Assembly: GCA_963705125.1 (NCBI GenBank)
Contig: CAVPIY010000011.1
Coordinates: 350,953 to 414,952 of the forward strand
Length of the DNA stretch: 64,000 bases
Reading direction: 5' to 3'
Origin: an uncultured Bacteroidales bacterium
Lineage (GTDB): Bacteria > Bacteroidota > Bacteroidia > Bacteroidales > UBA10428
The notes below the pieces were generated by a model, which saw nothing but the letters and a program-made list of their open reading frames with translations, did not search any database and was not told the origin of the DNA. A program made the position numbers and the translations under genes. This document shows, piece by piece, positions 24,137 to 57,493 of this stretch (within the stretch, counting starts at the first letter, position 1; the number at the start of each line of letters is the position of its first letter).

Positions 24137-24166
24137 ATTAAGATTAACCTTAAACCTAGAAAAGAC

Positions 24167-27100: not shown

Positions 27101-27324
27101 TTATGCTTGCCTACTCATTTGATCAGAAGCTGCTGAAGAAAATCGGATTTCAGAAAGCAAGAGTCTATGTTAGCGCCACCAACCTGTTCACGATAACCGA
27201 TTATACCGGTTATGACCCTGAAGTTGCGGCTTTCGCCAACTGGGGTGATGCCGTGATCGGGGTTGATTTGAGTGCTTACCCTCCGGCAAAGACCTATACA
27301 TTTGGTGTTGAGATGACCTTCTGA
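24167..27324 (+). pseudogene. susC: SusC-type TonB-dependent transporter (paralogue 1) broken by two +1 frameshifts
   Basis: ORFs 24125-25519, 25425-25946 and 25861-27324 are colinear with the intact paralogue 33857-37012. The frame goes 2 to 0 to 1. Shifts lie near 25490-25500 (CCCTTTGG) and at the T4 run 25941-25944. Confidence 0.85.
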
Positions 27325-32628: not shown

Positions 32629-32657
32629 AACAGGAGTTAGATCCAAAAAGTCCATCC

Positions 32658-32961
32658 GTCACGGCGAGGGAGCGAAGCGACCGAAGCGTCATTGCGAGCG
32701 CAGCGAAGCGAGTCAACGTCATTGCGAGGGAGCGAAGCGACCGAAGCGTCATTGCGAGCGCAGCGAAGCGAGTCAACGTCATTGCGAGGGAGCGAAGCGA
32801 CCGAAGCAATCTGCATCTGGTTGGCAGATTGCTTCGTCGTGTTGTGCGTCATTGCGAGGGAGCGAAGCGACCGAAGCAATCTGCATCTGGTTGGCAGATT
32901 GCTTCGTCGGCATGTAATATTATATTAAAAAAAGTCATTCTGCTCGCCTCCTCGCAATGAC
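32658..32961 (+). repeat. Family-1 repeat array (alternating 30-bp variants, then two hairpin elements)
   Basis: Cores at 32658 (degenerate), 32688, 32718, 32748, 32778 and 32848. Closes with CCTCCTCGCAATGAC at 32961. Confidence 0.9.
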
Positions 32962-32971
32962 GATTCCCTTC

Positions 32972-33488
32972 GTCATTGCGAGGAGACATGATACTGGTCT
33001 CTGCCTTGCAAAATGAAATTGTCGACGAAGCAATCTATTTGATTTATACATATTTTTTCGATACATTAGACATATTGAAAAATAGTTAACGGGTATTGTT
33101 ATTTACATGCAAAGAGGTGGTTGTGTTTATATTATGACCAATAATAACAACACAGTTCTTTATACTGGAGTTACAAGCAATCTGAGTAAAAGAGTTTCAG
33201 AACATAAGGAACGATTACATCCTGAATCCTTTACAGCTAAATACAATGTTGTCAAACTTGTTTATTATGAAGGATTTGATCATATCGAAGAAGCTATTGC
33301 ACGGGAAAAGCAGATTAAGGGAGGATCCCGAAAGGATAAGATCCGATTGATAATACAGATGAATCCGGAATGGGAGGATTTATATGACAGAATATGTGGA
33401 TTTTGATGATGTGCAAGGATTCAGATTGCTTCTTCAGCGCAATGCGTTTTGCTAAACTGAATAATACTATTCGCTTCCTCGCAATGAC
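32972..33488 (+). mobile_element. Putative autonomous family-1 unit: nested-palindrome ends enclosing a GIY-YIG gene (copy 1)
   Basis: Left end GTCATTGCGAGGAGAC (32972) with GAAGCAATCT at 33027-33036. Right side CAGATTGCTTC (33422-33432) with CTTCCTCGCAATGAC ending at 33488. Homologous over its whole length to 55763-56277. Confidence 0.45.
33107..33406 (+). CDS. Stand-alone GIY-YIG nuclease-domain protein (COG2827/YhbQ-like), 99 aa
   Basis: GCVYIMTN..VLYTGVTSNLSKRVSEH...YYE...EEAIAREKQIKG matches the GIY-YIG motif order. Confidence 0.8.
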   Translation: MQRGGCVYIMTNNNNTVLYTGVTSNLSKRVSEHKERLHPESFTAKYNVVKLVYYEGFDHIEEAIAREKQIKGGSRKDKIRLIIQMNPEWEDLYDRICGF

Positions 33489-33856
33489 GCCTGATTTGCT
33501 CGCCTCCTCGCAATGAAGTATCATTAAATCATCATACCTGCCCGGCCTGCAGGAAGGTCATTAAATAAACAAATGCCGAATTATGAATATTAGTATTAGA
33601 AATTTAAATATTAGTATTATATCCGAATAATCCTTTTCAGTATGTTTAATTACGATTTTATTCTGATTTTTATCATGTAATTTAAAAATATTTAAATCTG
33701 ATTTACATTCTTTTATACTTAAATTTTTCGCGGATAATAATAGTATGATTTACTATTCTGGTTATGTTATAATTTATCCGGAATAAAAATATTGTTGTTA
33801 GACTTTTTTTTAATTATTTTTAGTGGAGTTTTCTTAACCCTAAACCTTGAAAACAA

Positions 33857-36800
33857 ATGATTATGAAACAAAGACTGCAAAAAAAGGGTAAAACAATCCT
33901 GTTTGTTTTACTGAGTATTCTGTTCCTTGATGTCAGTCTGTTTGCAGGCATTTCTTCCCTTCCTCCGGAAGAATCCGCTGCAAAGGCTGTCACCATCAAC
34001 GGCCGGATTGTCGATACGGATGGCGTTCCCCTGGCTGGCGCTACCATTCAGGTCAAGGGAACTACTTCAGGAACCGTAACGGATGCCGAAGGTTACTTCA
34101 GGCTGTCGGTTCCGGAAGGTGCTACCCTGGTTATTTCCTTTGTCGGTTACATCACCCAGGAAGTGGCGGTGGGTAATCTTACTGAGATCAATGTGACAAT
34201 GGATGCTGAAGTGTCCGAGCTGGGCGAGGTGGTTGTTGTGGGGTATGGTACGGTAAAGAAAAGCGACCTTACGGGATCCATAAGTTCCATTAAACCCTCC
34301 GAGATCACATCATTGCCGACACAGCGTGTGGACCAGGCCCTGCAGGGACGCAGCTCGGGTGTGTTTGTCATGAACACCGACGGTTCACCGGGTGGTAATA
34401 CCATCATCCGCATCCGGGGTCTGAACTCCATCCAGGGGGGAAATGAGCCTCTGGTTGTTGTGGACGGCCTCCAGGGTGCTGACATCGACCAGATCAACCC
34501 GAACGATATCTCGTCCATGGAAATCCTGAAGGACGCCTCGGCCACCGCCATTTATGGATCACGCGGAGCCAACGGGGTAATCCTGATCACCACCAAACTG
34601 GGAAGGGAAGGGAAACCCGTTATCGATGCCGGTTACAGCATCGGTATTCAGAATCTTGCCCGCAAACTGCCCACGATGACAGCTGCCGAGTTTGCCGATT
34701 ATAATAATTACCAAAACCAGTTTAACAATGCCAACGGCGCAATACCAAAAAAATATTTTACGGATGAAGATATTGCCCGGTATGAGCGGGAAGGCGGCAC
34801 CGACTGGCAGGATGAGGTATACGGCACCGGTGTGATGCAAAATGCCAACCTGGCCATCAGCGGGGCCACCAACAGGCTCAAATACATGGTTTCATCCAGC
34901 TACCTCGATCACGAAGGTATCATGCTAAACTCCAAGTATACCAGGATATCCATGCGGGCTAATCTGGCAGCTGATATCACAGACTGGGTTGACTTCGGTT
35001 TGAATTATTCATACACCCGGGAAACATACAAATCACCCCCTTTCAGCGAGGGAGATGCCCTGTTCCAGGTGGTGAACAATGCCGTAAGGTGGGCACCCAC
35101 GGAACCGGTATATGATGAGAACGGCAATTACTGGAGACACACCCCGGGATATGCAGCCTATGATACCTGGAACCCGGTTGCCACGGCATGGGAAACAAAG
35201 ATTGACAACCCGGTCTACACGAACAATGCCAACCTGTTCCTGAATTTTAAGATCATGAAGGGTTTGACGTTCAAGGTTATGGGTGGAGGAACTTTTAATA
35301 ATTACTATAACAGCAACTACCAGAACACCAAAACCCGGAACGGCTACGCCATGAACGGCGTTGGATATATTGAAGAAAACGTCAGCAACCGGTTCCAGAA
35401 TACCAACATCCTGACCTACGATAATACTTTCGGGGCTCATCACCTTACCGTTACCTGGGTTCTTGAGAACATATTCAGTAATTCAAAGGGAAGCCGGATG
35501 GATGGTCAGGATTTTCTGGTCGACGAGCTGAATTTCAACAACATGGACGGGGCCAAATCCGTTTCTGTTGACTCTTACACCAGTGAAAGGGCCCTGATAT
35601 CTTTTATGGGGCGCATCAATTATGGATTCAAGGACAGGTACCTGGCCACATTCAGTTACAGGGCGGATGGATCCTCTGTATTCGGAGCGGATAACAAGTG
35701 GGGTTATTTCCCGTCAGGCTCTTTGGCCTGGAGAATTTCCGAGGAGGAGTTCCTGAAAAACTCGGGCCTGATCAATGATTTAAAACTGAGGGTAAGTTAT
35801 GGTATCACCGGTAACCAGGGCATCAGTCCCTATGGTTCACTGGCACGGCTCGGTTCAGGAAGCTGGTTGAGATACCCATACATCAACGGACAAAATCTGG
35901 ATATCGGTTTTGGTATATCCGATATTGCCAATCCGGGACTGAAGTGGGAAACCACCACACAATCCGACATTGGTGTAGATTTCTCCCTTTTCAAGGGCAG
36001 ACTTACTTCCACCATTGATGTATATAAAAAAGTCACGGATGACTTGCTGATGTCGAGGCAGTTGCCCGGTTACGTGGGCGTTGAATCGGTTCTCGACAAT
36101 ATCGGTTCAATTGAGAACAAGGGTCTGGAGATCATGATAGGCGGAGATCCGCTGACAGGCAAACTGAAGTGGAATACGTCCATGAACTTTACCATGAACC
36201 GGAACAAGGTACTCGACCTCGGGCCGGGTGTGGACCGTCTCGGATATCAGCCCACCTCCGGCGGTTACGGCCTGTTAAATGATTATATGTTCCTCGAAGT
36301 GGGTCAGCCCTTTGGTCTCATAAAGGGATGGAGATGGGACGGACTATGGGGGGCTGACGAGGAGGCAGAAGCACTCACCTATGGCCAGCTTCCCGGATGG
36401 GACAAATTAGCCGACATCAGCGGCCCGGATGATGTACCCGACGGACAGGTGGATTCAGACGACATGGTAAATATAGGCAATGGATATCCGAAATTCACCT
36501 GGGGATGGACAAACCAGTTCAACTACATGGGCTTTGAGCTGGCGTTCCTCTTTATTGGTTCGCAGGGCAACGACCTGTTCAATACCATCCGGATCCGCAG
36601 GCAATCATCATGGGAGGGAGTAGATCCGATACTATTTGATGAATGGACAGAGGAAAACCAGGGTACAAGCATACCAAAGTTGTATTACGGCGCCGACGTT
36701 GAAGCTATGAACCTGGAAAATAAATATTATGTTGAAACCAATAACACATCCAAATGGGTGGAAGATGCTTCCTTTATCCGGTTGAAAACCCTTACCCTGG

Positions 36801-37012
36801 GTTACTATGTTCCCATGAACATCTTGAAGAAGGTCGGCTTTAACAAAGCCAGGGTATATGTAAGCGGAACCAACCTGTTTACCATCACCGATTATACAGG
36901 CTATGATCCTGAGATTGCGGCTTACCCAAGCAATGATGCCACCATCGGGGTAGATCTGAGCGTTTACCCGCCGGCCAAGACCTATACTTTTGGCGTTGAG
37001 TTAACTTTCTGA
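33857..37012 (+). CDS. susC: SusC-type TonB-dependent transporter (paralogue 2, intact)
   Basis: CarboxypepD_reg-like N-terminus (INGRIVDTDGVPLAGATIQVKGT), plug region (IRIRGLNSI), 1051 aa ending TYTFGVELTF. Confidence 0.9.
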   Translation: MIMKQRLQKKGKTILFVLLSILFLDVSLFAGISSLPPEESAAKAVTINGRIVDTDGVPLAGATIQVKGTTSGTVTDAEGYFRLSVPEGATLVISFVGYITQEVAVGNLTEINVTMDAEVSELGEVVVVGYGTVKKSDLTGSISSIKPSEITSLPTQRVDQALQGRSSGVFVMNTDGSPGGNTIIRIRGLNSIQGGNEPLVVVDGLQGADIDQINPNDISSMEILKDASATAIYGSRGANGVILITTKLGREGKPVIDAGYSIGIQNLARKLPTMTAAEFADYNNYQNQFNNANGAIPKKYFTDEDIARYEREGGTDWQDEVYGTGVMQNANLAISGATNRLKYMVSSSYLDHEGIMLNSKYTRISMRANLAADITDWVDFGLNYSYTRETYKSPPFSEGDALFQVVNNAVRWAPTEPVYDENGNYWRHTPGYAAYDTWNPVATAWETKIDNPVYTNNANLFLNFKIMKGLTFKVMGGGTFNNYYNSNYQNTKTRNGYAMNGVGYIEENVSNRFQNTNILTYDNTFGAHHLTVTWVLENIFSNSKGSRMDGQDFLVDELNFNNMDGAKSVSVDSYTSERALISFMGRINYGFKDRYLATFSYRADGSSVFGADNKWGYFPSGSLAWRISEEEFLKNSGLINDLKLRVSYGITGNQGISPYGSLARLGSGSWLRYPYINGQNLDIGFGISDIANPGLKWETTTQSDIGVDFSLFKGRLTSTIDVYKKVTDDLLMSRQLPGYVGVESVLDNIGSIENKGLEIMIGGDPLTGKLKWNTSMNFTMNRNKVLDLGPGVDRLGYQPTSGGYGLLNDYMFLEVGQPFGLIKGWRWDGLWGADEEAEALTYGQLPGWDKLADISGPDDVPDGQVDSDDMVNIGNGYPKFTWGWTNQFNYMGFELAFLFIGSQGNDLFNTIRIRRQSSWEGVDPILFDEWTEENQGTSIPKLYYGADVEAMNLENKYYVETNNTSKWVEDASFIRLKTLTLGYYVPMNILKKVGFNKARVYVSGTNLFTITDYTGYDPEIAAYPSNDATIGVDLSVYPPAKTYTFGVELTF

Positions 37013-38580: not shown

Positions 38581-38999
38581 TATCTGGTTGGCAGATTGCT
38601 TCGTCGTGTTACGCGTCATTGCGAGGGAGCGAAGCGACCGAAGCAATCTGTCCACCCCGTCATTGCGAGTCCCGTTCACGGGACGAAGCAATCTGTCCAC
38701 CCCGTCATTGCGAGTCCCGTTTACGGGACGAAGCAATCTGTCCACCCCGTCATTGCGAGTCCCGTTCACGGGACGAAGCAATCTGTCCACCCCGTCATTG
38801 CGAGTCCCGTTCACGGGACGAAGCAATCTGTCCACCCCGTCATTGCGAGTCCCGTTCACGGGACGAAGCAATCTGTCCACCTCCGTCATTGCGAGTCCCG
38901 TTCACGGGACGAAGCAATCTGTATCAGGATAACAGATTGCTTCGTCTGCATGTAGTATTATTCTATATAGATTCATTCTGCCTGCCTCCTCGCAATGAC
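38581..38999 (+). repeat. Family-1 repeat array (1 x 44 bp plus 6 x 45 bp units with a private GC hairpin, closing into a complete element)
   Basis: Cores at 38615, 38659, 38704, 38749, 38794, 38839 and 38885. Unit is GTCATTGCGA-GTCCCG-ttca-CGGGAC-GAAGCAATCTGTCCACCCC. Ends CCTCCTCGCAATGAC at 38999. Confidence 0.9.
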
Positions 39000-41900
39000 G
39001 TTTAATGCCAACTTATAAATCCTCACCGAATCATTATTCAGTGCAAAAACCAGGATGTCTTTTCCGATTGCCGACCTGATATGGGCAATGTCCCTTACTT
39101 CGCCATTTACATGTAACCCACTTTGAATATCGTTCATCACAGCAAAATCCCCTTTCCCGTTCCCGGTAAGTAACAATCCTTTATTGGCATCATATTCTCC
39201 GAATCTGAGCCGGGTACCAAAGAAATTGCCTGCCAGGATCAAATCCACATTGCCATCCTGATTGTAGTCCCCGGCCTGTATGGCATAAACTGGAGAGAAC
39301 TGGGTGACAGGGGGAAGAGGAGAAAGGGAGAACTGATCGTTCCCCTTGTTTTCAAGATAACAACTGGCAAAGACAAAGGCTTTGAGAACCAGAGCGTCCT
39401 TTAATTCTTCCGGTGAAAACATGTCAGTAATCGTCTGACTGGCATAGGACTCATAGGTAGGATATTTCTTTTCAAGGATGGGCAATTGTCGCTGCAGATC
39501 ATCTTTTGGGTAAATTGGGTAGCATTTTCCCTGGATGTAAGAGCACATCACCGCATCGATCGATCCATTGTTATCAAAATCTTTGGCATACAGGGTGACC
39601 GGTTCAGTAACGGATGTCTTTAAGCGGGAATTCAAGCCCAGGTTCCCGACAACGTAGTCCTGATCACCATCGTTGTCAAAATCTGCTGCTGAAATGGAAT
39701 TCCACCAGCCTGCTGAATTTTTCAGGCCACAATTGTCAGTGATTTCAGTTAGACGCTTGCCGGTATGCATAAAAATCCGTATGCTCATCCATTCCCCCAC
39801 GATAATAATATCCAGCTGCCTATCTCCGTTGATATCGGTCCATAACGCATCCGTTACCATACCCGGATTCATCAGGGACTTATTATAGTTCTCAGTTACA
39901 TCTTTGAAATATCCCTTACCATTATTTTCCAGCAGATAGCTTCTCGGTATCAAGGGGTAAGATCCAGGCACCAGCCTGCCCCCAACAAAAAGATCCAGGT
40001 CACCGTCATTATCTACATCGCCTGCCCTGACACAAGAACCGCTGGTCAGCATCACGGGAAGCTGATCAGCTGATTTTGTAAAAAGCCCCTTCCCGTTATT
40101 GAGGTATAATCGATCCTGCAGTTCAGGGGCATCCTTCGGAAATTCATTTCCTCCGCTGACTACATATAAATCCGGATCAGTATCCCCGTCAGCATCAAAA
40201 AATACGGCTCCTATATCCTCACAACCTTTGTCTTCTTCAAAGCAAGACTGTATCTGCAAGCCAAAAGATCCGTCCTTTTTCTGAATATACAGGCTGCCCG
40301 GACTATCCCTGGCACCACTGAAATACAAATCCTCCAGACCGTCTTTGTTTATGTCTCCTTTAGCAATGTGTGGTCCCTGGGTGGAAAGAAGATGATGCAA
40401 AAGAATTTGTTTCCTGAAATCGACATATTCATTTTCAACATGCTTATAGTCAAGTATCTTACTATTCAAAGGAACAAAAACGGGTCGATATGATTGGACT
40501 GTTACCTCTTTGAGCGGATGTGCATTCTTTTGATGAAGAATAAGGGTTTGATCTGCAACGACCTTTTTAAATACCTCTTCAAGCAAATCAGGCCAGATCA
40601 CCTTCAGTGAATCAACTTGGGTTGATTTGCCCAGGCCAAAAATCAGCTCGTGATTCACGGAGGACATGTATCCCCGTGAAGGCATGAATTCCTGTATATA
40701 AATCTGATCTTTGCAAAAAACTTCCACCTTAGCGCCGATTCCACCCCGGTTCAAACCTGATCCATCGAACCTGATTTTTAAGAAGTGATTCAGGTTGCGT
40801 TTGCTTGCGTTATTCCGGTAAATAAAGGCATAAGAATTGACATTGTTGGTTACTATATCCATATCCCCGTCATCATCCAGATCGGCATAGGCAGCTCCGT
40901 TGGAAAATGACAGGATCTCTTCTCCCCACTCCTCAGTCACATTGGTAAAAGTCAGGTCTCCGTTATTCCGGTAAATATAGTTTTTCAATACAGTGGGGGG
41001 GATTTTTTCGATCAGCTCCAATTTGGTCATGGTATGTCTGCCGGTACGCCTCCTGTCTTCCTCCAATGCAACAAGCCTGATAAAATCCAGGTTGGTATTG
41101 TTCTTCCAGAATCCGGTGGTAACATACAGATCCTTGTATCCGTCATTGTCAAAGTCACAGAAGAGAGGCCCCCAGCTCCAGTTGGTGGCGAAAATCCCCG
41201 AGTATTGCCCGATCTCTGTAAAATATTCTCCGAGGTTATTCACATGCAACATGTTACGGGTAACCTGGCCCTGAAACACCTTATTCTTAAGCATAAAATA
41301 ATTACCCGGATTATCCGGCCGGGCTACCAGCTTCTGTTCATAATTATCCTCCGGAAGCATGTCCGGGGTCATCAGATCAATGTACCCGTCATTGTTAAAG
41401 TCAGCCGCATCATTGCCCATGGATGCAAAAGGGGTATGTTCAAAAAAGGCATCCAGCTCATCCCTGAAAGTGCCGTCTTTTTGGTTGATATACAGACGGT
41501 CTTTCACAAAATAATCCTGGCAGACATAAATATCCGGCCAGTTGTCCTGGTTAAAATCGGCTATGGCCAGTCCCAGTCCGTAATACGTTGAACTGGGGAT
41601 CATTCCTGCTTCCCTGGAAACATTGACAAACCTCTCACCGGTGTTCTTGTACAATTGCTCCCCGAATCTTCTGCTGGTCCCGGTCATCATGCTCATCCGG
41701 TTTATCAGGGGCCCTTCAGCGATGTGATTCAGAACAAGCAGGTCAAGGTCACCGTCTTTATCATAATCAAAAAAAGCACTGTGTGTGGAATGAAAGGGAT
41801 CGTCGATACCATATTTTGCAGCACATTCTGTAAAAGTAAGGTCCCCTTCATTGATGAAGAGCTGATTTCTTCTTTTTTCGGGATTGCCTGAGGCAGCATG

Positions 41901-42434: not shown

Positions 42435-42588
42435 ACCTCACCCCTGCCAGACGGCAAGAAGATACTGCCTGTCTCCACCTCACCCCCTGCCCCCTCTCCT
42501 AAAGGCGAGGGTTGTGAGGTTATCGTTGACATGGTTGATTCCATTGACGTTTTCCCCCTCTCCTCAAGGAGAGGGGCAGGGGTGAGGT
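42435..42588. repeat. Family-2 MITE-like element, copy 4, with an extra partial left arm
   Basis: A partial ACCTCACCCCTGCC at 42435, then the full element CCACCTCACCCCCTGCCCCCTCTCCtaaaggcGAGGG ... CCCCCTCTCCTCAAGGAGAGGGGCAGGGGTGAGGT. Confidence 0.8.
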
Positions 42589-42649
42589 GGAGAGGAGCAG
42601 GATTGAATTTATAAAGGCCCTTCTGACATTTCTAAAAAGCTTGCACAAA

Positions 42650-45600
42650 ATGCAAATTGCCAACTTTTTCAGGATTTTCGCGATGATGTTATTCACAGGA
42701 ATCCTCCTATTAAACTGCCATCAGCAAAATCATCAAAGCGAATCTCAAAAAGCCACCCTGTTCCGTGAGGTCTCCCCAAAGGAAAGCGGCATCCGGTTTG
42801 CAAACCAGTTGCAGGAAACAGACACCGCCAATTCGATCTTTTATGAATATTACTACAACGGGGCCGGACTGGCCATCGGAGATGTCAACAATGACGGCCT
42901 GAGCGATTTATTCTTCGGGGCAAACATGACGGAAAGCAGGTTGTACCTGAACAGGGGAAATTTATCCTTCTCCGATATCACGGAGGAATGTAGTATCAAC
43001 ACTTCCGGAAAGTGGGTCACCGGTGTCAGCCTGGTGGATATCAACCAGGATGGATGGCTGGATATATACCTGTGCTGTGCCGGCAATATTGATTATGATT
43101 ACCATAATCTCCTGTATATCAGCAATGGTGACAGGGATCACCTGGTATTCTACGAACAGGCTGCTGCGGTGGGTCTGGATGACGACGGATACTCTACACA
43201 GGCAGAATTCTTTGATTATGACCGGGATGGTGACCTCGATGCCTATATTGTTACTGCAGCCCTGACCATTCCAAATAAAAACGCCCTGCGGATGCGCAAA
43301 AGCGACGGATCGATGATCAACACCGATCGCCTGTTCAGGAATGAAGGGATTAACCCAAAAACCAAACTGCCTGTTTTCAGGAATGTATCAAAGGAGGCCG
43401 GCATCACCTGGGACGGGTTTGGCCTTGGCGCAAGTGTCTGTGACATCAACCGGGACGGATGGCCGGATATCTATGTGGGTAATGATTATATTTCAAATGA
43501 TCTTCTGTATGTAAACCAGGGTGATGGCACCTTTAGGGAAATGGTGAAAAACTACACCAAACACATCACCAACAGTACAATGGGCGTTGACATTGCTGAT
43601 ATCAATAACGATGGGCTGGTGGATATACTGACCCTGGATATGCAACCCGAAGATTATTTCAGAAAAAGGACAATGGCCCTGACCATGCGCACTTACGACC
43701 GCTATATGAAGGAGCTGGATGCAGGTTACTCGCCCCAGTATATCCGGAATATGCTGCAAATGAATAACGGAGAGATAGAAGGACAGGTTACTTTCAGTGA
43801 TATCGGACAACTGGCAGGTGTTTTCGAGACTGACTGGAGCTGGGCTCCCCTGCTGGCTGACTTTGACAACGACGGAAACAGGGACCTGTTTATCGGCAAT
43901 GGCATTCAGCACGATATGACCAATATGGACTTTTCAGAGTTCTGGATGAAAAAAGTCAGGGAGAATCGCGGAATGGAATGGAGTGTGCTGTATAAAATAT
44001 TAAAGACTGAACTGGATAAAAAAGGCAATGTTAAAAAGCCGAATGTCATCTTCCGGAATTCAGGCGGTCTTGTATTTGAGAATAAGACCATCGAATGGGG
44101 CATGAGCAGGCCTGCGTATTCAACCGGCTCTGCTTTTTCAGACCTGGACAATGATGGTGACCTTGATCTGGTATTGAACAACATCAATGATCCGGCATTG
44201 GTTTATGAGAATACCCTGATCAATGCGGACTCTGTAAACCGCAGTCATCATTTTCTTTCCATCCAACTGATGGGGGATTCATTAAATCCGGATGGCATCG
44301 GTGCAAAGATCAGTATATTCTGTGGAAAACAGCTGCAGTACTATGAACATTTCCCCATCCGGGGATTTCAATCCATGGTTGATCCGAAAATTCACTTCGG
44401 GTTGGGAGAGATCACCCTGATTGATTCGCTGTTGATCTGGTGGCCGGACGGAAAGGAGCAGCATTTATATAAGTTGACCAGTGATCAGCTTTTATCGCTC
44501 CACCATGATCAGGCATCCCTTATCACCAAACAAAAAACTGTGAAGGATAGCAAAAACAAGATCTTTACCTCCCTGACCGGTAAAACAAGAATAGAATACA
44601 AGCATCGGGAAAAACAATTTGTCGATTTTGAAATTCAACCCCTGGTCCCGCATCAATATTCCCGGGAAGGACCGGGCCTTGCAGTGGGAGATATTAATTC
44701 CGACGGCCTGGATGATTTCTTTGTGGGAGGATCAACCGGCTTTCCGGGAATAATATTTCTTCAGGATAAAACAGGCAGCTTTGCTTCTTCCCCTTTGCCC
44801 GGTAATAGTAATTATGAAGATATGGGTTCGCTGTTCTTTGATGCGGATGGTGACGGCGATCAGGACCTGTATGTGGTAAGCGGTGGTTCCGGATTACAGC
44901 CCGGCAATCAGTTCTATGCCGACAGACTGTATATCAACAACGGCAAGGGTCAGTTTACCATGCACAATATTGCACTGCCTGATTTCCGGGTGTGTGGTTC
45001 ACAGGTTACCGCTGCAGATTACGACAAGGATGGAGATCTGGATCTGTTTGTCTGTGGCAGGGTTGACCTGGAGAAATATCCGATGCCACCCAGAAGCTTC
45101 CTGCTCAGAAACGACACCAAAGGTTCGATCATTCGTTTTCTCGACGTTACCAGTCAGGTCTGCAGGGACCTGGAACGGCCGGGGCTGGTTGCCGCGGCCC
45201 TGTGGACCGACTTTTACCAGGATGGCTGGCCCGACCTGATCCTGGCCGGTGAGTGGATGCCACTGACCTTATTCAGGAACAACCAGGGTAAGATGGAAAA
45301 TGTGACCTCGTCCACCGGACTGGAAAATTATACCGGATGGTGGAACAGCCTCACCGCTGCAGACTTCGACAAGGACGGCGATATAGATTATGCCGCCGGG
45401 AACCTGGGATTGAACACCCAGTATAAAGTATCGCAGGAACAGCCCATGCGGATCACAGCAAAGGATTTCGACAGGAACGGGACGCTGGATCCGGTTTGCA
45501 GCTATTATGTGCAGGGGAAAAGCTATCCCATCTATCACCGGAATTTGCTGTTGCAGCAAATCCCATCCCTGAAAAATAAATATAAAACATATGAAGATTA

Positions 45601-46252
45601 TGCCCGGGCAACCATGGATGACATCTTCCCTGTAAATACACTGAAGGATGCCTATATCCGCGACAGCCGGTTCTTTGAATCGGCCTGGATCGAAAACCTG
45701 GGCAAGGGATCCTTCCGGATGCATGCCCTCCCGGTTGAGGCACAGACCGCTCCGGTATTTGGCATGCTTGCAAATGATTATGATGCGGACGGGAATATAG
45801 ACCTTCTGTTGACGGGCAATTCCTATTCATTCAATGTGTATGACGGACAGCAGGATGCCTTTATTGGCCTGTGGCTGAAAGGGGACGGCAAGGGCGGATT
45901 TACTCCGGTCCAGGGGCAGGAAAGCGGTTTTTTTGTCGACGGGGATGCAAAAGCACTGGCAGAACTGGTGCTGGGCAATGGCAGTTCGCTGATCCTGGCA
46001 GCGCAGAACTCCGGCTACCTGAAGGTATTTAAAGTTGCCGGATCAGATGCAAAGATAATCAGGCTCCGCAATGATGATGTCATTGCAGTGCTGACCTATG
46101 AAAACGGCCGGAAGGAATACCGGGAGTTCTACTACGGAAGCGGCTATTTGTCCCAGTCATCACGGGTGATCAAAGTACCCAAAGAGGTAACATCAGTGAA
46201 TATAGTTAATTACAAAGGAGAAACCAGAAAAATTACCGTTCATAATCAATGA
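42650..46252 (+). CDS. VCBS/FG-GAP repeat plus ASPIC/UnbV-type lipoprotein, paralogue 3
   Basis: The ATG at 42650 gives signal MQIANFFRIFAMMLFTGILLLNC. The ORF-track start at 42587 lies inside the MITE. The 3' 1.1 kb is nearly identical to paralogue 1. Confidence 0.8.
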   Translation: MQIANFFRIFAMMLFTGILLLNCHQQNHQSESQKATLFREVSPKESGIRFANQLQETDTANSIFYEYYYNGAGLAIGDVNNDGLSDLFFGANMTESRLYLNRGNLSFSDITEECSINTSGKWVTGVSLVDINQDGWLDIYLCCAGNIDYDYHNLLYISNGDRDHLVFYEQAAAVGLDDDGYSTQAEFFDYDRDGDLDAYIVTAALTIPNKNALRMRKSDGSMINTDRLFRNEGINPKTKLPVFRNVSKEAGITWDGFGLGASVCDINRDGWPDIYVGNDYISNDLLYVNQGDGTFREMVKNYTKHITNSTMGVDIADINNDGLVDILTLDMQPEDYFRKRTMALTMRTYDRYMKELDAGYSPQYIRNMLQMNNGEIEGQVTFSDIGQLAGVFETDWSWAPLLADFDNDGNRDLFIGNGIQHDMTNMDFSEFWMKKVRENRGMEWSVLYKILKTELDKKGNVKKPNVIFRNSGGLVFENKTIEWGMSRPAYSTGSAFSDLDNDGDLDLVLNNINDPALVYENTLINADSVNRSHHFLSIQLMGDSLNPDGIGAKISIFCGKQLQYYEHFPIRGFQSMVDPKIHFGLGEITLIDSLLIWWPDGKEQHLYKLTSDQLLSLHHDQASLITKQKTVKDSKNKIFTSLTGKTRIEYKHREKQFVDFEIQPLVPHQYSREGPGLAVGDINSDGLDDFFVGGSTGFPGIIFLQDKTGSFASSPLPGNSNYEDMGSLFFDADGDGDQDLYVVSGGSGLQPGNQFYADRLYINNGKGQFTMHNIALPDFRVCGSQVTAADYDKDGDLDLFVCGRVDLEKYPMPPRSFLLRNDTKGSIIRFLDVTSQVCRDLERPGLVAAALWTDFYQDGWPDLILAGEWMPLTLFRNNQGKMENVTSSTGLENYTGWWNSLTAADFDKDGDIDYAAGNLGLNTQYKVSQEQPMRITAKDFDRNGTLDPVCSYYVQGKSYPIYHRNLLLQQIPSLKNKYKTYEDYARATMDDIFPVNTLKDAYIRDSRFFESAWIENLGKGSFRMHALPVEAQTAPVFGMLANDYDADGNIDLLLTGNSYSFNVYDGQQDAFIGLWLKGDGKGGFTPVQGQESGFFVDGDAKALAELVLGNGSSLILAAQNSGYLKVFKVAGSDAKIIRLRNDDVIAVLTYENGRKEYREFYYGSGYLSQSSRVIKVPKEVTSVNIVNYKGETRKITVHNQ

Positions 46253-46281
46253 AACAGAAGTTAGATCCAAAAAGTCCATCC

Positions 46282-46446
46282 GTCATTGCGAGGGAGCGAA
46301 GCGACCGAAACGTCATTGCGAGGGAGCGAAGCGACCGAAACGTCATTGCGAGGGAGCGAAGCGACCGAAACGTCATTGCGAGGGAGCGAAGCGACCGAAA
46401 CAATCTGCCTCTGGATAGCAGATTGCTTCACTTCGCTCGCAATGGC
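46282..46446 (+). repeat. Family-1 repeat array (4 x 30 bp, closing into a 75-bp element)
   Basis: GTCATTGCGAGGGAGCGAAGCGACCGAAAC at 46282, 46312, 46342 and 46372. Then CAATCTGcctctggatagCAGATTGcttcacttcgCTCGCAATGGC. Confidence 0.9.
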
Positions 46447-51599: not shown

Positions 51600-54509
51600 A
51601 TGAAAGCCAATTATCGATTATTCAGGTTGTTGTTGTCAGTATCCTGTATATTGATGCTGCCATGTCAATTGAACCGGGCAGGGATCCAGCAGCCCATGCT
51701 GCAGATACCGGCCATCAAAACGCCTCCCGTCATTGACGGCAAGTTAAACGATGCTGCCTGGCAAAAAAGCGTCGAAATATCCGAATACATTATCTGGACA
51801 TTGGATACCTACGTTAAGGACTCCCTGGCCGCATGGATCTGTTATGATGACAAAAACCTGTACGTGGCCTTCCGCAATATAGACGCGGCTGCAGGTAAAC
51901 TTCAAAAATCCCCGGAAGGTAAGGATTCCTGGGATACCTTTCTGTGGGGGAGGAATTATAATATGGTCCAGGTTGGTTACCAGGGAGTGGATATCCAACT
52001 CATGGCCGATCCGAAAGGAACCCAGACCGACTATAAAAACGGTGATATCAGCTGGAACGGAAAATGGAAATATGCGGCTTCCGTAAACCTGAAAGACTGG
52101 ACAGCGGAATTCAGCATCCCGCTGAGCGATGCCGGACTTGAAGGGACGGCCGCCAATAAAGAAATCAGCATGGGCATTTCCAGAAGCTTCCCTTTAGGGG
52201 AATCATCGAATTGGGATGGCAAATGTTTACTTGCCGGTCCTGCTGTTGCAACCTATCAGTATGGCAGATGGCCTGAACCGGCCCCGGGTAAGAACTTTGT
52301 TCCCTTTGTTGCACAAAACTTTGGCACGGATAAGCTGAATGTAGTGTGTGAACTGGAACTGATCCCGCTGAATGACAAGCCTGAATTCATCCACCAGGAG
52401 GGTCAGGGACCATCTTCAGAACTGCAGCTTTATGTAAGCAAAGAACCTCTGCGCTTCACTTATTCCTTTTCAATACCGGCAGGCGGAACCCTGAATGAAA
52501 AGGTGCTATATGAATTACCCGATGAAGGCAGCTATTATGCCAACGCTACGATTAAATCGGCAGACGGATCGCTTATCCGGCGCAACAGTGATTTCTGGTT
52601 CACGATCGAGCCCAACCGGAAAAAAATCAAAGCCCTCAAAGAAAGACTCGGGGAAAGTCAGGCTTCCATGACGCGAATATCAAATCCCGTTGCTGACCGT
52701 TTGCGTAATGAAGCCGGTGCTGTTGAAAAGGACCTGCAAAAGCTGGAATCTTTTGCTGAAATTGCATGGAAGTCCGGACAATGGGATGAGCTCACCTCCC
52801 AGGTGAATAAGATGGATGGTCAGATTTCCAGACTTCTTCATAAGGTGAAATGGACAGCCTTGCATAAGTGGCAGGCTGAAGATGAATTTGCGATCGCATG
52901 CACCCATTCCGTGGTCAAACTCCGGAGAGATGCTATATTCCCTTTCCCCATAAGTGAGAAGATAGATTTATCTCAGGCACGGAATGAATATGAATCCGTG
53001 CAGTTGGCCATACTGCCTTTTGGCAAAGACCTGAACCAGGTTACCTTGGAAGCAAGCGATTTAAAAGGCAGCGATGGAAATACTATTCCAAAAAGCAATA
53101 TTGAAATGTCGCTGGTGGATTATAATAAAATTGACTGGCAGGCCTCCTATGTGACTGCTTATAAGGGTTGGCATCCCGATCCCTTAATTCCGTTGAAATC
53201 TGCCATAAACATCAGTGGAAGTGAGGTATGCCGCCCGGTGTGGATCACGGTGTATGCACCTCCGGGAACTGCTGCCGGTGAATATACCGGTACGATCACG
53301 GTGAGTGCAGCCGGAACAAAGAAACTAACCGCTTTAGTAAAGTGCAGAGTGTGGGACTTTGAACTGCCGGTTTCGGGCCACCTGGTAACCCATACCTGGG
53401 ATGATTTAGACATGTTGTGTGATTTTTACAACCTGGAAGAGTATCCTGTTGACTGGTACCAGAAATTTTGCGGGTTGCTGTTAAAGAACAGAATGAATCC
53501 GGGCTTTGCCGGTGTAAATTACGTGGATCAGTTGCCGGATAAATCCGGTACTTATAATTTCAGCAAGGTGGAGAAAGTGCTGGATTATTGCATTGACCGC
53601 GGATTGAACCGATTTTCGATTATACAGATGAAGAAGGGGGCCTATACACCCGAAGAGGCCGAAATTGCCTATAAATTTACGGCAGCCTATGCCAGGTTTT
53701 TGCGTGAAAAGGGCTGGCTTGACAAAGCATTGGTTGAACTGTGGGATGAACCTACTGACCTGGAGTGGCCCGGAATCAAGGAACGGGCAGAACGGCTGAA
53801 ACAGATCGATCCGGGATTGCGCCTGCAATTGTTTGCCGAGGGCGGACCTTACAACTTCTGGGATAAGAGCACGGACAAATATGGTTTGAATAATCTGGTG
53901 GATATCTGGGCACCGATAAATCCGATTGAATCTCCCGAAATCCAGGCCAAGGGAGGAGAGATCTGGGCGTACTTCTGCACACTGACCCGGGAAAGTGCTC
54001 CGAATTTCTTCATCGACTGCCCGGCCATTTACCAGCGAAGCATTGCCTGGTATTGCTGGATGTATGGTCTGGATGGATTTGAGCACTGGAGCACGACTTA
54101 CTTCTGGAGAAATACACATGCCGGAAAACCCATGGATCAAAAATGGCCGAATGTACCCTGGGATTCACGCACATATCACTATTTTAATGGAGAAGGGCAG
54201 CTGATTTACCCGGGCCCGGATGGAAATCCATATTCATCCATTCGTCTTGAAAACTTCCGCGACGGGATGGAAGATTACGAATATCTATACAGGCTGAAAG
54301 AGCTCCTTTCAGAATATGACAAGGACACAAAGGATCCGGCAATAAATGCATACAGACAACTTCTGAATGCAGAAGACTATCTGTTGTACAAGTATCCGAA
54401 AAATATCAAGGCCACATTGGAAAATACATTGCGATACCCCGATCAGCCCGAGTTGTTTATAGAGTCACGCAATAAGATAGCCAGGGCAATTGAGGATTTA
54501 CAAAAATGA
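51600..54509 (+). CDS. CBM9-like module plus DUF4091 / GH123-like domain protein (969 aa)
   Basis: Signal peptide. IDGKLNDAAWQKS...NLYVAFRN N-terminal module. C-terminal SSIRLENFRDGMEDYEYL block. Confidence 0.65.
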   Translation: MKANYRLFRLLLSVSCILMLPCQLNRAGIQQPMLQIPAIKTPPVIDGKLNDAAWQKSVEISEYIIWTLDTYVKDSLAAWICYDDKNLYVAFRNIDAAAGKLQKSPEGKDSWDTFLWGRNYNMVQVGYQGVDIQLMADPKGTQTDYKNGDISWNGKWKYAASVNLKDWTAEFSIPLSDAGLEGTAANKEISMGISRSFPLGESSNWDGKCLLAGPAVATYQYGRWPEPAPGKNFVPFVAQNFGTDKLNVVCELELIPLNDKPEFIHQEGQGPSSELQLYVSKEPLRFTYSFSIPAGGTLNEKVLYELPDEGSYYANATIKSADGSLIRRNSDFWFTIEPNRKKIKALKERLGESQASMTRISNPVADRLRNEAGAVEKDLQKLESFAEIAWKSGQWDELTSQVNKMDGQISRLLHKVKWTALHKWQAEDEFAIACTHSVVKLRRDAIFPFPISEKIDLSQARNEYESVQLAILPFGKDLNQVTLEASDLKGSDGNTIPKSNIEMSLVDYNKIDWQASYVTAYKGWHPDPLIPLKSAINISGSEVCRPVWITVYAPPGTAAGEYTGTITVSAAGTKKLTALVKCRVWDFELPVSGHLVTHTWDDLDMLCDFYNLEEYPVDWYQKFCGLLLKNRMNPGFAGVNYVDQLPDKSGTYNFSKVEKVLDYCIDRGLNRFSIIQMKKGAYTPEEAEIAYKFTAAYARFLREKGWLDKALVELWDEPTDLEWPGIKERAERLKQIDPGLRLQLFAEGGPYNFWDKSTDKYGLNNLVDIWAPINPIESPEIQAKGGEIWAYFCTLTRESAPNFFIDCPAIYQRSIAWYCWMYGLDGFEHWSTTYFWRNTHAGKPMDQKWPNVPWDSRTYHYFNGEGQLIYPGPDGNPYSSIRLENFRDGMEDYEYLYRLKELLSEYDKDTKDPAINAYRQLLNAEDYLLYKYPKNIKATLENTLRYPDQPELFIESRNKIARAIEDLQK

Positions 54510-54510
54510 C

Positions 54511-55279
54511 ATGAATTACGGAAGAACAAAAGTAGTTCTCTGCAAGGATGCAGCGGAACTCGGGAAGCAAGCAGCTTCTGATGTAGGCAACAAGATCAGG
54601 GAACTGCTCGGTCATCAGGAAGAAATCAGAATCATCTTTGCGGCAGGTGAAAGTCAAATTACTTTCCTTGATGCGCTGGCAAAGGAAAAGAACATCGACT
54701 GGAAGAGAATTATCTGCTTCAACATGGACGATTTCTATGATACAAAGATACCTGAGGAGTATACATGCGGATCATCAAACTAAAAGGCAATTATACGACA
54801 AAATCAATCCCAGGCGGATATATCTTGTGAGATATAATGCCCCTGACCCGTATGAAGAAGCCAGACGTTTTGAAGCGGTTATGCGCGACGAAGGAGAATT
54901 TGACATTCTTTGTCAGGGAATAGGCACTTCAGGCCATTTGGCCCTTAACGAACCCTTTGATACCGATTTTAAAGATCAGACCTGGGTCAGGGTCGTGAAC
55001 CTGGCGGAGCAGTCCATTATGCAGCTGAGGGAAGATCCTAATTTCAAAGCGCTCGGCTATATCCCTGCAAAAGGCATTACTATGACCATTCCGGCCTTAC
55101 TATCTGCAAAGAACATATACACCATGGTTCCTTTGGCGCTAAAGCGGCCCATACTTGAAAAGCTTTTCGTTGTGAAAACACCCACGACGGAACTTCCCGC
55201 ATCGGTTTTGCTGCAGGTTGATAGTACCCTTTATCTTGACAGAGATTCATGCCCGCAGGGGTTGATTTCTAAATTCTGA
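54511..55279 (+). pseudogene. NagB/6-phosphogluconolactonase-family (glucosamine-6-phosphate deaminase-like) gene with a +1 frameshift
   Basis: The N-terminal half (frame 1, ..IIFAAGESQ..FNMDDF..) stops at 54781-54783. The C-terminal half (frame 2, ..ILCQGIGTSGHLALNEP..) continues to 55279. Removing one base in GGATCATCAA (54770-54778) restores CGYQTKRQLYDKI. Confidence 0.7.
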
Positions 55280-55286
55280 GACCATC

Positions 55287-55762
55287 GTCATCGCGAGGAG
55301 ACGTTTCCCCGTCATTGCGAGGAGACGTTTCCCCGTCATTGCGAGGAGACGGGATAATTCTCTCTGCATTGTAAATTGATAACGTCGACGAAGCAATCTT
55401 TATCTGGTTAACAGATTGCTTCGTCAGCGTATAGTATTTTGCCTTACTGAATAATATAACTCGCTTCCTCGCAATGACGATTCTCTCCGTCATTGCGAGG
55501 AGACGTTTCCCCGTCATTGCGAGGAGACGTTTCCCCGTCATCGCGAGGAGACGGGATAATTCTCTCTGCATTGTAAATTGATAACGTCGACGAAGCAATC
55601 TTTATCTGGTTAACAGATTGCTTCGTCAGCGTAAAGTATTTTGCCCTACTGAATAATATAACTCGCTTCCTCGCAATGACGATTCTCTCCGTCATTGCGA
55701 GGAGACGTTTCCCCGTCATCGCGAGGAGACGTTTCCCCGTCATTGCGAGGAGACGTTTCCCC
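55287..55762 (+). repeat. Family-1 higher-order array: 24-bp left-arm stutter plus two 144-bp gene-less elements (202-bp period)
   Basis: Cores at 55287, 55311, 55335, 55489, 55513, 55537, 55691, 55715 and 55739. Gene-less elements at 55335-55478 and 55537-55680. Confidence 0.9.
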
Positions 55763-56277
55763 GTCATTGCGAGGAGACGGGATAATTCTCTCTGCATTGT
55801 AAATTGATAACGTCGACGAAGCAATCTGTTTGATTATTACATAATTTTTTATAAATTAGGCATATCGAAAAATCGTTATATGCAATCTTTAATTATATGC
55901 AAAGAGGTGGTTGTGTATACATTATGACCAATAAGAACAACACTGTTCTGTATACCGGCGTTACAAGCAATCTTAGTAAGCGGATTTCAGAACATATGGA
56001 ACGATTTCACCCTGAGTCATTTACAGCTAAATACAATGTTGTCAAACTTGTGTATTATGAAGGATTTGATCATATCGAAGAGGCTATAGCACGGGAAAAG
56101 CAGATAAAGGGAGGATCCCGAAATGATAAGATCGATTAATAACCCAAATGAATCCTGATTGGGAGGATTTGTATGACAGGATCTGTGGATTTTGATGCTG
56201 TTGGGTGATACAGATTGCTTCGTCAGCTTGTGGCAATTTGCTTAACTCAATAATTCTATTCGCTTCCTCGCAATGAC
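55763..56277 (+). mobile_element. Putative autonomous family-1 unit enclosing a (frameshifted) GIY-YIG gene (copy 2)
   Basis: GTCATTGCGAGGAGACGGG... at 55763, then GACGAAGCAATCT, the ORF, ACAGATTGCTTC, and CTTCCTCGCAATGAC ending at 56277. Confidence 0.45.
55897..56195 (+). pseudogene. GIY-YIG nuclease-domain gene with a 1-nt deletion near its 3' end
   Basis: 80 codons match 33107-33406. GATAAGATC-GATT replaces GATAAGATCCGATT, giving TAA at 56137-56139. NPDWEDLYDRICGF* is still readable in the -1 frame up to 56195. Confidence 0.7.
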
Positions 56278-56308
56278 GTCTGGTCTGCATGCAGGCTCGC
56301 AATTAGGG

Positions 56309-57493
56309 TTAGTACTTCCCGCATTCCTGCAATGCATCCCACATGGCCCAGAAGTTCTCCGGGGGGACATCGTCCTGAATGTTGTGAACCGGGGCAAAAA
56401 CAAAACCGCCTCCGGGTGCTAGGATATCCAGGATTCTTTTTACTTCCTCTTTAACCTGTTGCGGTGTTCCTTTGTTCAGGGTTGACTGGGTGTCAACACC
56501 CCCACCCCAGAATGTAATAACATCACCGAAGTCCCTTTTCAGTTCCCTGAGATCCATTCCTGCTGCTGTGAACTGGACCGGATTCAGGATATCCATTCCC
56601 GCATCGATCAGGTCTGGGATCAGGTTCCGGATGGCACCGCAGCTGTGCATAAAGATCTTTATATGGGGCAACCGTTTCCGGATATGGGTAAACAGGATCT
56701 TCAACCGGGGAATAACCATTTGCCGAAGCAACATTGGATCCAGAATGGTTGTGCTTTGCGAACCGAGATCGTCACATTCCGAAATCACATGGATCTTTTC
56801 AGCATTGCCGGTTCCAACTGCCCAATCGATAACGGCATCCCAGTAACGGATCTTATCCTCAAGTACAATATCCAGCAAGGCTTCAACTCCGGAAGGATCC
56901 AGCACCGTATCCATGAACCAGTTCTCATATCCCCTGATCCGGAGGCTGTTCTCCGTAAGGCCTGCCGTGTTCCGGTCTGCAATACAGCAGAAATCGCCCA
57001 CCCGCTTAATCTGTTCGTCCAGATGCCGGTGCAACACCGGAACATATTCATGCCAATCAATCCGTTTCAGCTTATGCAAGGACTCGGACAATAGTTCATA
57101 TTCCCTGAGCGGATAAGTTGCCTGGTTGAAATACAGATCTTTTTCAGGATCGAGTCGCCAGTCACAACCATAAAAATCCGTTACTTCAATGAATCTGTCA
57201 CTCAGTCTTTTTTTATGCCGGTAATCAAAAATGCGGTGTGCACCAATTCTGCGTGTATCAGCATGCAGGAATACCAGGTTTTCCTCATCGGGTGTAATGA
57301 TCTGCTGTATGGGATCCACTTCATCATTGCCGATTGTCTCCGGGAGTCCGCGAAACCGCATAGCCCTGATATAGGCATTTCTGGTAATGGCAGTCACCGT
57401 TGTCCCGGCCAGATCGTAGGGTACACGATCCGGCTCTGTATGGTTGACGGCACATAATACTCTCTCTTTTCCGTTCATTTCACCTAATTTCAA
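56309..57493 (-). CDS. Uroporphyrinogen-decarboxylase (URO-D / MtaA-CmuA-like) family protein
   Basis: N-terminal ERVLCAVNHTEPDRVPYDL and 394-aa length are typical of the family. The start overlaps the MFS gene stop by 14 nt. Confidence 0.6.
   Translation of the reverse strand: MKLGEMNGKERVLCAVNHTEPDRVPYDLAGTTVTAITRNAYIRAMRFRGLPETIGNDEVDPIQQIITPDEENLVFLHADTRRIGAHRIFDYRHKKRLSDRFIEVTDFYGCDWRLDPEKDLYFNQATYPLREYELLSESLHKLKRIDWHEYVPVLHRHLDEQIKRVGDFCCIADRNTAGLTENSLRIRGYENWFMDTVLDPSGVEALLDIVLEDKIRYWDAVIDWAVGTGNAEKIHVISECDDLGSQSTTILDPMLLRQMVIPRLKILFTHIRKRLPHIKIFMHSCGAIRNLIPDLIDAGMDILNPVQFTAAGMDLRELKRDFGDVITFWGGGVDTQSTLNKGTPQQVKEEVKRILDILAPGGGFVFAPVHNIQDDVPPENFWAMWDALQECGKY

Follow-up and report, generated by a model that had tools for sequence, protein, structure and literature searches.

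How do gene-bearing and gene-less copies of one short, repeat-bounded element come to stand in tandem between two genes? This question is raised by positions 55286-56308 of a 64,000-nucleotide stretch of DNA from an uncultured Bacteroidales bacterium (assembly GCA_963705125.1, contig CAVPIY010000011.1, positions 350,953 to 414,952; in the following called the window), where two units of 202 bp, 97-98% identical to each other, are followed by one 517-bp unit with a GIY-YIG nuclease gene. Taken as a whole, we consider it very probable that this is an Ssn/SRM locus of Bacteroidota, i.e. a gene for a nuclease of single-stranded DNA (ssDNA), here called ssn, together with the oriented hairpin repeats known as Ssn-related motifs (SRMs), with turnover of the gene-bearing cassette, a local origin of the 202-bp units and a likely erroneous 1-nt deletion in the gene.

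An earlier note, made from the letters of the window alone, had described a three-unit tandem array with a 202-bp period at 55287-56277. Such an array is present, within 1 nt of the stated coordinates: its conserved repeat includes one more base on the left, the C of CGTC. Tandem Repeats Finder reports a period of 202 with 2.3 copies, 97% matches and a score of 905 at 55286-55755, and 24-nt arrays at 55286-55351, 55487-55553 and 55689-55779; the picture given by a repeat finder agrees with this and lists nested inverted repeats as well. Units 1 and 2 are equal at 198 of 202 positions, leaving four that differ, and a T/C variant of the repeat head has a different rank in unit 1 than in unit 2. 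The core 11-mer GTCATTGCGAG occurs, with one mismatch allowed, 42 times in the window, compared with 1.08 copies expected from shuffles. The features of the array are given below; a complete SRM runs from a CGTC-tagged head to a tail, and head-only copies are partial SRMs, three of which stand in unit 3 and two each in units 1 and 2.

55286-55333, + strand: two 24-nt head-only partial SRMs, CGTCAT[C/T]GCGAGGAGACG plus TTTCCC, 7 nt past the stop codon of a NagB-like gene.
55334-55399, + strand: complete SRM A1 with tag CGTC, head ATTGCGAG, a 45-nt interior and tail GAAGCAATC(T); equal to A3 at 66/66 positions.
55400-55412, no strand: loop of gene-less dimer 1, TTATCTGGTTAAC, between two inward-facing tails.
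[quoted passage not shown]
55480-55487, no strand: 8-nt head-to-head spacer ATTCTCTC; a similar spacer, ATTCCCTT, precedes the cassette at 33 kb (32963-32970).
55488-55689, + strand: second 202-bp unit with two head-only units, SRM A2, loop, SRM B2 and spacer; 198/202 positions as in unit 1.
55536-55601: SRM A2, within the second 202-bp unit.
55615-55681, - strand: SRM B2, within the second 202-bp unit.
55690-55761, + strand: three 24-nt head-only partial SRMs.
55762-55827, + strand: SRM A3, the left boundary of the ssn cassette.
55897-56195, + strand: ssn, a GIY-YIG gene of the Ssn family; as assembled it ends after 80 aa with TAA at 56137-56139, and its conserved C-terminus is readable in the other frame as far as TGA at 56193-56195.
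56212-56278, - strand: SRM B3, the right boundary of the ssn cassette.
56279-56308, - strand: degenerate head-only relic CCCTAATTGCGAGCCTGCATGCAGACCAGA, 1 nt past the stop codon of a URO-D-like gene and at the same position as the SRM head of the related locus L157.

Through this last, degenerate extra head (CCCTAATTGCGAG) the locus reaches the stop codon of the next gene. In an alignment, the gene-less 144-bp elements (55335-55478 and 55537-55680) are colinear with the gene-bearing forms at 55763-56277 and 32972-33488, so that gene-bearing and gene-less units with the same nested inverted repeats do stand in tandem, as had been noted. The statement that the short form matches both flanks of the long one holds for the left arm, which is identical to that of the neighbouring cassette at 66/66 positions, and less well for the right arm, where 55/67 positions (82%) agree; the 33-kb cassette's right arm comes equally close, at 55/67. 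The loop of the gene-less dimers (~12 nt) is similar to the loops of gene-less dimers at other loci. Folded as ssDNA, dimer 1 (A1, loop and B1) forms a long branched hairpin (free energy -33.7 kcal/mol, z -9.3).

To which family does the gene belong? The intact copy at 33107-33406 encodes 99 aa with a lone GIY-YIG domain (PF01541, residues 5-77, E 1.6e-17) and no other domain, which bears out the GIY-YIG assignment of the resident gene, and the resident copy, judged by eye to match at about nine in ten positions, measures 89.6% (268/299). Homologues of ~99 aa run into the thousands and occur in many phyla. BLASTP aligns the window protein with the 94-aa gonococcal SsnA at 45% identity over 88 aa (E 2e-25); a C-terminal N..W.DL motif is common to both, and Y8, Y19 and E67 align with Y6, Y17 and E64 of the gonococcal open reading frame (ORF). 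This ORF lies among 16 NTS repeats, and its Tyr6, Tyr17 and Glu64 are the residues mutated in the study of SsnA (PMC11893778). Neisseria meningitidis has an SsnA of 94 aa with GIY-YIG as its single domain (Chenal et al., Nat Commun 2025, PMC11893778). The hairpin repeat NTS (CGTCATTCCCGCG...GCGGGAATC) is bound by this enzyme in its ssDNA form alone and cut a few nt upstream; double-stranded DNA (dsDNA), RNA and the reverse strand are not acted on. The same authors reported that homologous genes of the Ssn nuclease family (cd10448) are typically flanked on both sides by SRMs, and raised the mobility of such cassettes as a hypothesis only. Oriented hairpin repeats likewise flank the gene in both window cassettes and in most of 80 homologous loci of other genomes. 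The window gene encodes a predicted site-specific ssDNA nuclease of the Ssn family, with homology as the basis for its activity.

Other affiliations were also considered. A homing endonuclease of group I introns was rejected, as TIGR01453 gives 23.6 bits, where 56.05 would be needed, and the protein is just 99 aa long. No solved Ssn structure was found; the best real relative among structures is the UPF0213 protein BH0048 (1zg2), at E 0.03 as against 2e-25 for SsnA. The nuclease has no match in PADLOC or PHROGs, so no affiliation with defence systems or phages is indicated. Exact-protein look-ups returned no record for the URO-D-like protein and both ssn products, and a literature search on COG2827, YhbQ and UPF0213 gave nothing useful. 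The gonococcal ssnA locus was found by tblastn in a chromosome filed as a plasmid in PLSDB, where NZ_CP119140.1 and NZ_CP119142.1, two 2.17-Mb chromosomes of Neisseria gonorrhoeae, are listed as "plasmids" and are almost unannotated.

The second component is the repeat. Collecting all stretches from NGTCATTGCGAN to GAAGCAATC in the window and in the 80 homologue-encoding loci yielded 202 units with a common plan, YGTC-ATTGCGAG-(4-45 nt variable interior)-GAAGCAAT-C. Units of the form ATTGCGAG...GAAGCAATC number 23 for the window and 191 for the set of 80 homologous loci, compared with 4 in 503 kb of unrelated control loci, and complete units are present in 61 of the 80, which belong to Bacteroidota, Chloroflexota, Proteobacteria, Spirochaetota, Patescibacteria, Bacillota and others. 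Seen as a stem-loop on one strand, the SRM opens with a 5' tag that does not pair (GTC, preceded by C in 52% and by T in 36% of the units); a basal stem of 5 bp (ATTGC/GCAAT) leads to a conserved internal loop rich in purines, and this to a distal hairpin that varies. The stem begins with ATT, and the base past it is C, followed by a pyrimidine in 97%. The interiors vary in sequence and often are perfect small hairpins, such as TCCCG-TTCA-CGGGA, CCGC-GAA-GCGG and CTCCGATG-TA-CATCGGAG; 25 of 65 dereplicated interiors have z below -2 against shuffles. In the cassettes of the window and of the homologous loci, ssn always lies between two tails. No conserved motif for a cleavage site was found 5' of the tag, where there is a weak pyrimidine bias (~0.6) only, and this lack of conservation matches where characterised Ssn enzymes cut. 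Rfam has no family for the repeat, neither for the whole window at the gathering threshold nor for 55200-56400 at E up to 1, with mir-280 and a group II intron domain as sub-threshold chance matches only, and a literature search with the exact repeat motif returned unrelated primers only. We regard these SRMs as a putative distinct specificity class of a known system, conserved at the nucleotide level across phyla.

The likeness to the published Ssn/SRM system extends from the enzyme, in both cases a single GIY-YIG domain of about 94-99 aa with aligned catalytic Tyr/Tyr/Glu, to the layout, a gene between opposed CGTC-tagged hairpin repeats with further repeats clustered around it, and to the grammar of the repeat (YGTC, a stem starting with ATT, C-Y past the stem). 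The repeat itself differs, being ATTGCGAG...GAAGCAAT instead of the published ATTCCCGCG...CGCGGGAAT, with a 5-bp stem, then an internal loop that is conserved and rich in purines, and beyond it 4-45 nt of variable distal insert; the window repeats escape the published pattern, and head-only partials in 24-35-nt arrays are prominent. Such repeats had been catalogued earlier as CGTC-tagged repetitive extragenic palindromes (REPs) "without a dedicated transposase" in Bacteroidetes, Chlorobi and Proteobacteria (Di Nocera et al., BMC Genomics 2013, PMC3733652). The window repeats have in common with them the unpaired CGTC/TGTC tag, stems starting with AT, a high extragenic copy number, head-outward dimers, clusters and a position mostly downstream of genes, between convergent or co-directional ORFs. 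In contrast, the published families CGTC-1 to CGTC-4 have continuous stems of 8-9 bp with loops of 4-5 nt, and a CCA-like tail, and were described as lacking a dedicated enzyme; such a continuous stem is not found in the window SRMs, whose stem is interrupted, and here the enzyme gene lies inside the dimer. A further parallel is offered by REPs, REPINs and their RAYT transposases and by IS200/IS605 elements, i.e. a small nuclease gene between inverted hairpin repeats in extragenic spacers, gene-less doublets resembling REPINs, an ssDNA hairpin as substrate and no target-site duplication; the enzyme differs from RAYTs in being GIY-YIG instead of an HUH Y1 transposase, and the tag is CGTC instead of GTAG. 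We know of no strand-transfer chemistry for Ssn. With homing endonucleases of the I-TevI type and with UPF0213/YhbQ the window protein has the GIY-YIG catalytic fold in common, and it differs from the I-TevI type in having neither a DNA-binding domain nor an intron or intein context. What is already known is therefore the Ssn/SRM system of 2025, building on the CGTC REPs of 2013; new are the divergent repeat class, which had not been captured, and the comparative evidence for cassette turnover.

Applied to the array, this gives a simple reading of its units. The ~99-aa Ssn would, like its characterised relatives, bind the CGTC-tagged hairpin only as ssDNA and nick it a few nt 5' of the tag. 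The gene-less 144-bp unit is two facing SRMs with tails inward and CGTC heads outward, the 517-bp cassette a facing SRM pair with ssn between the tails, as in the known NTS-ssnA-NTS layout, and the 24-nt stutters 5' partial SRMs, that is, heads without tails. As whole cassettes come and go between close relatives, the system probably behaves like REP/RAYT, a selfish or semi-domesticated element with its place in short gene-end spacers. A nested-insertion model for the stutters was ruled out, as a matching stack of orphan tails is not found.

How far can the assembly be trusted? The earlier note had called the resident gene a frameshifted copy. The underlying facts stand: after 56133 the sequence lacks one C (GATCCGATT becomes GATCGATT), so that TAA arises at 56137-56139, and the original C-terminus, ...RLITQMNPDWEDLYDRICGF*, can be read undamaged in the other frame as far as TGA at 56193-56195. 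As a real pseudogene, the copy is doubtful. At least three other 1-nt frameshifts interrupt ordinary genes of the window, at homopolymers or GATC sites. The NagB-like (Glucosamine_iso) gene at 54490-55279, 500 bp upstream, is split by a 1-nt insertion at ~54767 that creates GGATC (GGATCATC versus GGTCATC in the orthologues of L156 and L157). A SusC-like TonB-dependent receptor at 24125-27324 falls into three ORFs, colinear with residues 1-440, 440-591 and 591-1051 of the paralogue encoded at 33857-37012; the shifts are at an AAA run (~25490) and a TTTTAAA run (~25935). The ssn deletion itself lies directly after GATC. The corrected 55-kb ssn shows dN/dS of 0.05-0.13 against two other copies, its codons after the shift being equally constrained, and an 80-aa product would lose L81, N86, W89, D91 and L92, all at least 90% conserved. 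Given the other 1-nt frameshifts and a dN/dS of ~0.1 in the shifted copy, the deletion is probably a residual indel error of long-read assembly, and at most a very recent real mutation. Frameshifts in this window should not be taken as biology.

The wider suspicion that the tandem structure and/or the frameshift are assembly artefacts of a repeat-rich region is, all in all, somewhat probable, and applies very unequally to its two parts. To the frameshifts at A3/T4 runs or next to GATC and the lack of decay in the corrected ORF can be added that related contigs break at SRM repeats (L083 ends within one). However, units 1 and 2 have four differences, and the head variant at different ranks shows that they are not identical collapsed copies. 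Furthermore, higher-order arrays of SRM dimers stand beside ssn in unrelated assemblies, with periods of 153 (L026), 209 and 193 (L074) and 93 (L067), and head-only arrays of 24-26 nt also occur in an isolate genome, that of Flavihumibacter soli. Because similar arrays are found in unrelated assemblies, the array type is a trait of the family, and an artefact of this one assembly is an unlikely cause. There is a strong case that the 1-nt deletion is an artefact, and a weak one that the array is.

Does the cassette come and go? A protein-based metagenome scan with the URO-D-like gene retrieved relatives in which this gene converges on a NagB-like gene, as follows.

L156: site empty, the two stop codons 2 nt apart.
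L081: site empty, with a 26-nt spacer.
L157, and L083 (99% identical to L157): one 479-bp SRM-ssn-SRM cassette in the orientation of the window, 1 nt past the URO-D stop codon.

Both flanks of the empty L156 are 94.6-95.1% identical to those of the filled L157 and L083. An empty and a filled site at ~95% flank identity show that a whole cassette, bounded exactly by the CGTC heads, was recently gained or lost. No target-site duplication is seen at the junctions of L157 or of the window in comparison with the empty sites L156 and L081. Between the window and L157, dS is 0.285 for ssn, compared with 1.5 for the flanking URO-D-like and 0.89 for the NagB-like gene; as the cassette dS is far below that of the flanks, the cassettes are younger than the split of their hosts, which favours acquisition over ancient orthology. 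A second site is informative in another way. Downstream of a SusD-like gene, L162 carries an orphan tail and one head-only unit of 24 nt besides an ssn cassette, and the same site in the window (the 38.6-kb array) an orphan tail, seven SRMs and a gene-less dimer. Gene-less forms may plausibly descend from gene-bearing ones, and the L162 site is compatible with loss of ssn. The L157 NagB-like gene ends ...PRHCEET* within the cassette head (L157 1405-1440).

These alleles bear on the idea of a classical cut-and-paste transposon, in which a GIY-YIG transposase would act on terminal inverted repeats of dsDNA and the 144-bp MITEs would have arisen by internal deletion. The nested inverted repeats in both forms and the colinearity of the forms fit such an element, as do the presence or absence of the whole cassette between 95%-identical relatives and the finding of an ssn cassette and a gene-less dimer at one orthologous site in two genomes. 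We nevertheless hold it to be very unlikely: the junctions lack target-site duplications, the protein, of 99 aa, consists of the catalytic domain only and has as its homologue an enzyme inactive on dsDNA, SRM singletons and one-strand head-to-tail arrays are not predicted by a model of terminal inverted repeats, and the "MITEs" differ from the resident parent by 18% in their right arms and not at all in their left arms. The earlier description of a MITE-parent family thus gives way to one in which the arm pairs are opposed, CGTC-tagged hairpin repeats of SRM or REP type and the gene belongs to the Ssn family of ssDNA nucleases. As an analogy the wording is fair; it names the wrong family. Nor do the gene-less units look like clean internal-deletion derivatives of the adjacent parent, with right arms 18% diverged and loops like those of dimers at other loci.

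Stable residence is seen elsewhere in the family. In Chryseobacterium (L016-L064), a single SRM-ssn-SRM cassette occupies one of two conserved chromosomal positions in 13 species, which indicates that it is probably a long-term resident passed on by vertical inheritance. This could be read as a domesticated, immobile host system that restricts incoming or exposed ssDNA or shapes its recombination, as has been proposed for Neisseria, or that provides terminators or mRNA stabilisers between convergent genes, the arrays being a by-product of recombination. In addition to the Chryseobacterium synteny, where cassette identity tracks flank identity, the strong purifying selection on ssn speaks for this, and so does a role in transformation in Neisseria (Chenal et al., PMC11893778). 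Four of the seven SRM loci of the window fill 3' intergenic spacers and even supply stop codons, and an apparent gene-conversion tract between two paralogues ends at an SRM array. On the other hand, a site that is empty in one relative and filled in another 95% identical, a cassette dS 3-5 times below that of the flanks, near-identical repeat ends across many phyla, which argue for horizontal spread, and one SRM dimer in a divergent promoter region instead of at a 3' end are all difficult to bring in line with immobility, and we consider domestication rather unlikely. The family shows both behaviours, turnover and stable residence, and movement catalysed by Ssn is put forward here as a proposal.

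Where does the 202-bp period come from? The left SRMs are identical and the right ones 18% diverged, which is better explained by recombination or slippage among the heads, or by conversion of the left arm, than by deletion from a parent. The period would most likely be of local origin, through out-of-register recombination or slippage between dimer heads and the heads of the adjacent cassette. For the spread of the system as such, homing has to be considered, in which Ssn nicks near SRMs and repair from a cassette copy, with the SRM arms as homology, copies ssn into the loops of dimers. It would explain why ssn always lies between two tails, and a recent conversion would fit the left SRMs of two dimers, which are 100% identical to that of the cassette, and the right SRMs, which are not; an orthologous site with a cassette in one genome and a gene-less dimer in the other is likewise in line with it, and GIY-YIG enzymes are classic homing nucleases. 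However, the homology arms would measure just ~65 bp, characterised Ssn nicks ssDNA and makes no double-strand breaks, the empty L156 site is without any SRM dimer, so that a gain there is left unexplained, and deletion of ssn fits the same data equally well. Homing therefore seems improbable to us.

A further step beyond the Ssn/SRM reading would be to regard SRM-ssn-SRM cassettes as autonomous mobile elements, driven by a GIY-YIG ssDNA nickase instead of an HUH or DDE transposase, which enter and leave gene-end spacers without target-site duplication. Gene-less dimers would then be their REPIN-like offspring and head-only arrays the scars of nicking and repair. We offer this as a tentative idea, which we think possible and somewhat short of an even chance.

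Several points weigh against our overall explanation. The duplication mechanism of the 202-bp units is a conjecture, and the array length and the 1-nt deletion are as the assembly gives them. Binding and cleavage of the window SRM by the window Ssn are predicted from homology. The polymorphism of empty and filled sites fits insertion and hairpin-mediated excision alike, and the Chryseobacterium cassette is syntenic across species, with a divergence in step with its flanks. The basal stem has just 5 bp, and as naked ssDNA the single units whose interiors are short fold weakly (-2.7 to -3.4 kcal/mol), shuffled sequences doing at least as well. Finally, the published degenerate pattern (HGTCWYN(0-2)YYVSBRHN(0-5)WNVSBRGN(0-2)RNCYNB) matches nowhere in the 64-kb window, once in the 80 homologous loci and 9 times in a 3.3-kb gonococcal control locus.

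The window holds seven SRM loci, the 55-kb locus being counted as two dimers plus one cassette, and all copies are intergenic or overlap just the last codons of a gene. The remaining loci are the following.

1384-1600, + strand: five 35-nt SRM units (the last complete) and one opposed SRM.
21554-21641, + strand: isolated SRM dimer in a divergent intergenic region.
32657-33517, + strand: second ssn locus with a head-only array, two gene-less dimers and the cassette 32971-33489.
33107-33406: intact ssn, 99 aa, within the second ssn locus.
38583-39000, + strand: orphan tail, seven head-to-tail complete SRMs (one of 44 nt, then with a period of 45-46) and a closing opposed SRM, without ssn.
46281-46446, + strand: three 30-nt head-only units, then a gene-less dimer.

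At the 38.6-kb array, a 1107-aa gene on the - strand ends ...VIARRQAE* within an SRM head (window 38973-39000). SRM repeats can provide the C-terminal codons and stop codons of neighbouring genes. The SRM heads that stand back to back at both ssn loci are separated by similar 8-nt spacers (ATTCCCTT at 32963-32970, ATTCTCTC at 55480-55487 and 55682-55689), and in other genomes such spacers measure 6-11 nt in 13 of 24 cases, a figure that is descriptive, no null having been computed. Expansions, head-only or head-to-tail, favour the + strand side by far (five loci), and on its - side each ssn cassette has just one extra degenerate head (33507-33517 and 56296-56307). The GC skew of the window tracks gene orientation and is uninformative on the replication strand.

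Two paralogous 1200-aa genes with FG-GAP/VCBS-like repeats (29026-32628 and 42587-46252) are 70-75% identical over their first 2.5 kb and 86-99% over the last 1.1 kb (31576-32700 versus 45200-46324); the identity reaches 99% across the stop codon, the spacer and the SRM heads that come first. It has the look of a gene-conversion tract with its end in the SRM array, which recalls the recombination role proposed for the dRS3/NTS repeats in Neisseria.

The repeat arrays also yield long spurious ORFs with reiterated peptides such as VIARRRFP, LLAMTGKR and SLRSLAMT (55247-55824 on both strands, 32609-32989 and 38619-39005), one of which has 126 aa (55444-55824, - strand), and gene callers will label them as hypothetical proteins.

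What the locus means for the family is in part a matter of annotation. Small genes labelled "GIY-YIG nuclease family protein" that stand together with CGTCATTGCGAG...GAAGCAATC repeats should be annotated as Ssn/SRM, in Bacteroidota and in many other phyla; at present the repeats give rise to spurious ORFs such as ...VIARRR... and easily pass for MITEs. An SRM class with a fixed head and tail and a free distal hairpin, which is missed by the published pattern, matters for the mining of Ssn enzymes as ssDNA tools. Furthermore, empty and filled alleles together with the divergence of cassettes relative to their flanks provide a testable handle on the mobility of Ssn cassettes. If the proposal of mobile cassettes is true, these alleles and the 3-5-fold lower dS of the cassette would be the first comparative evidence for it.

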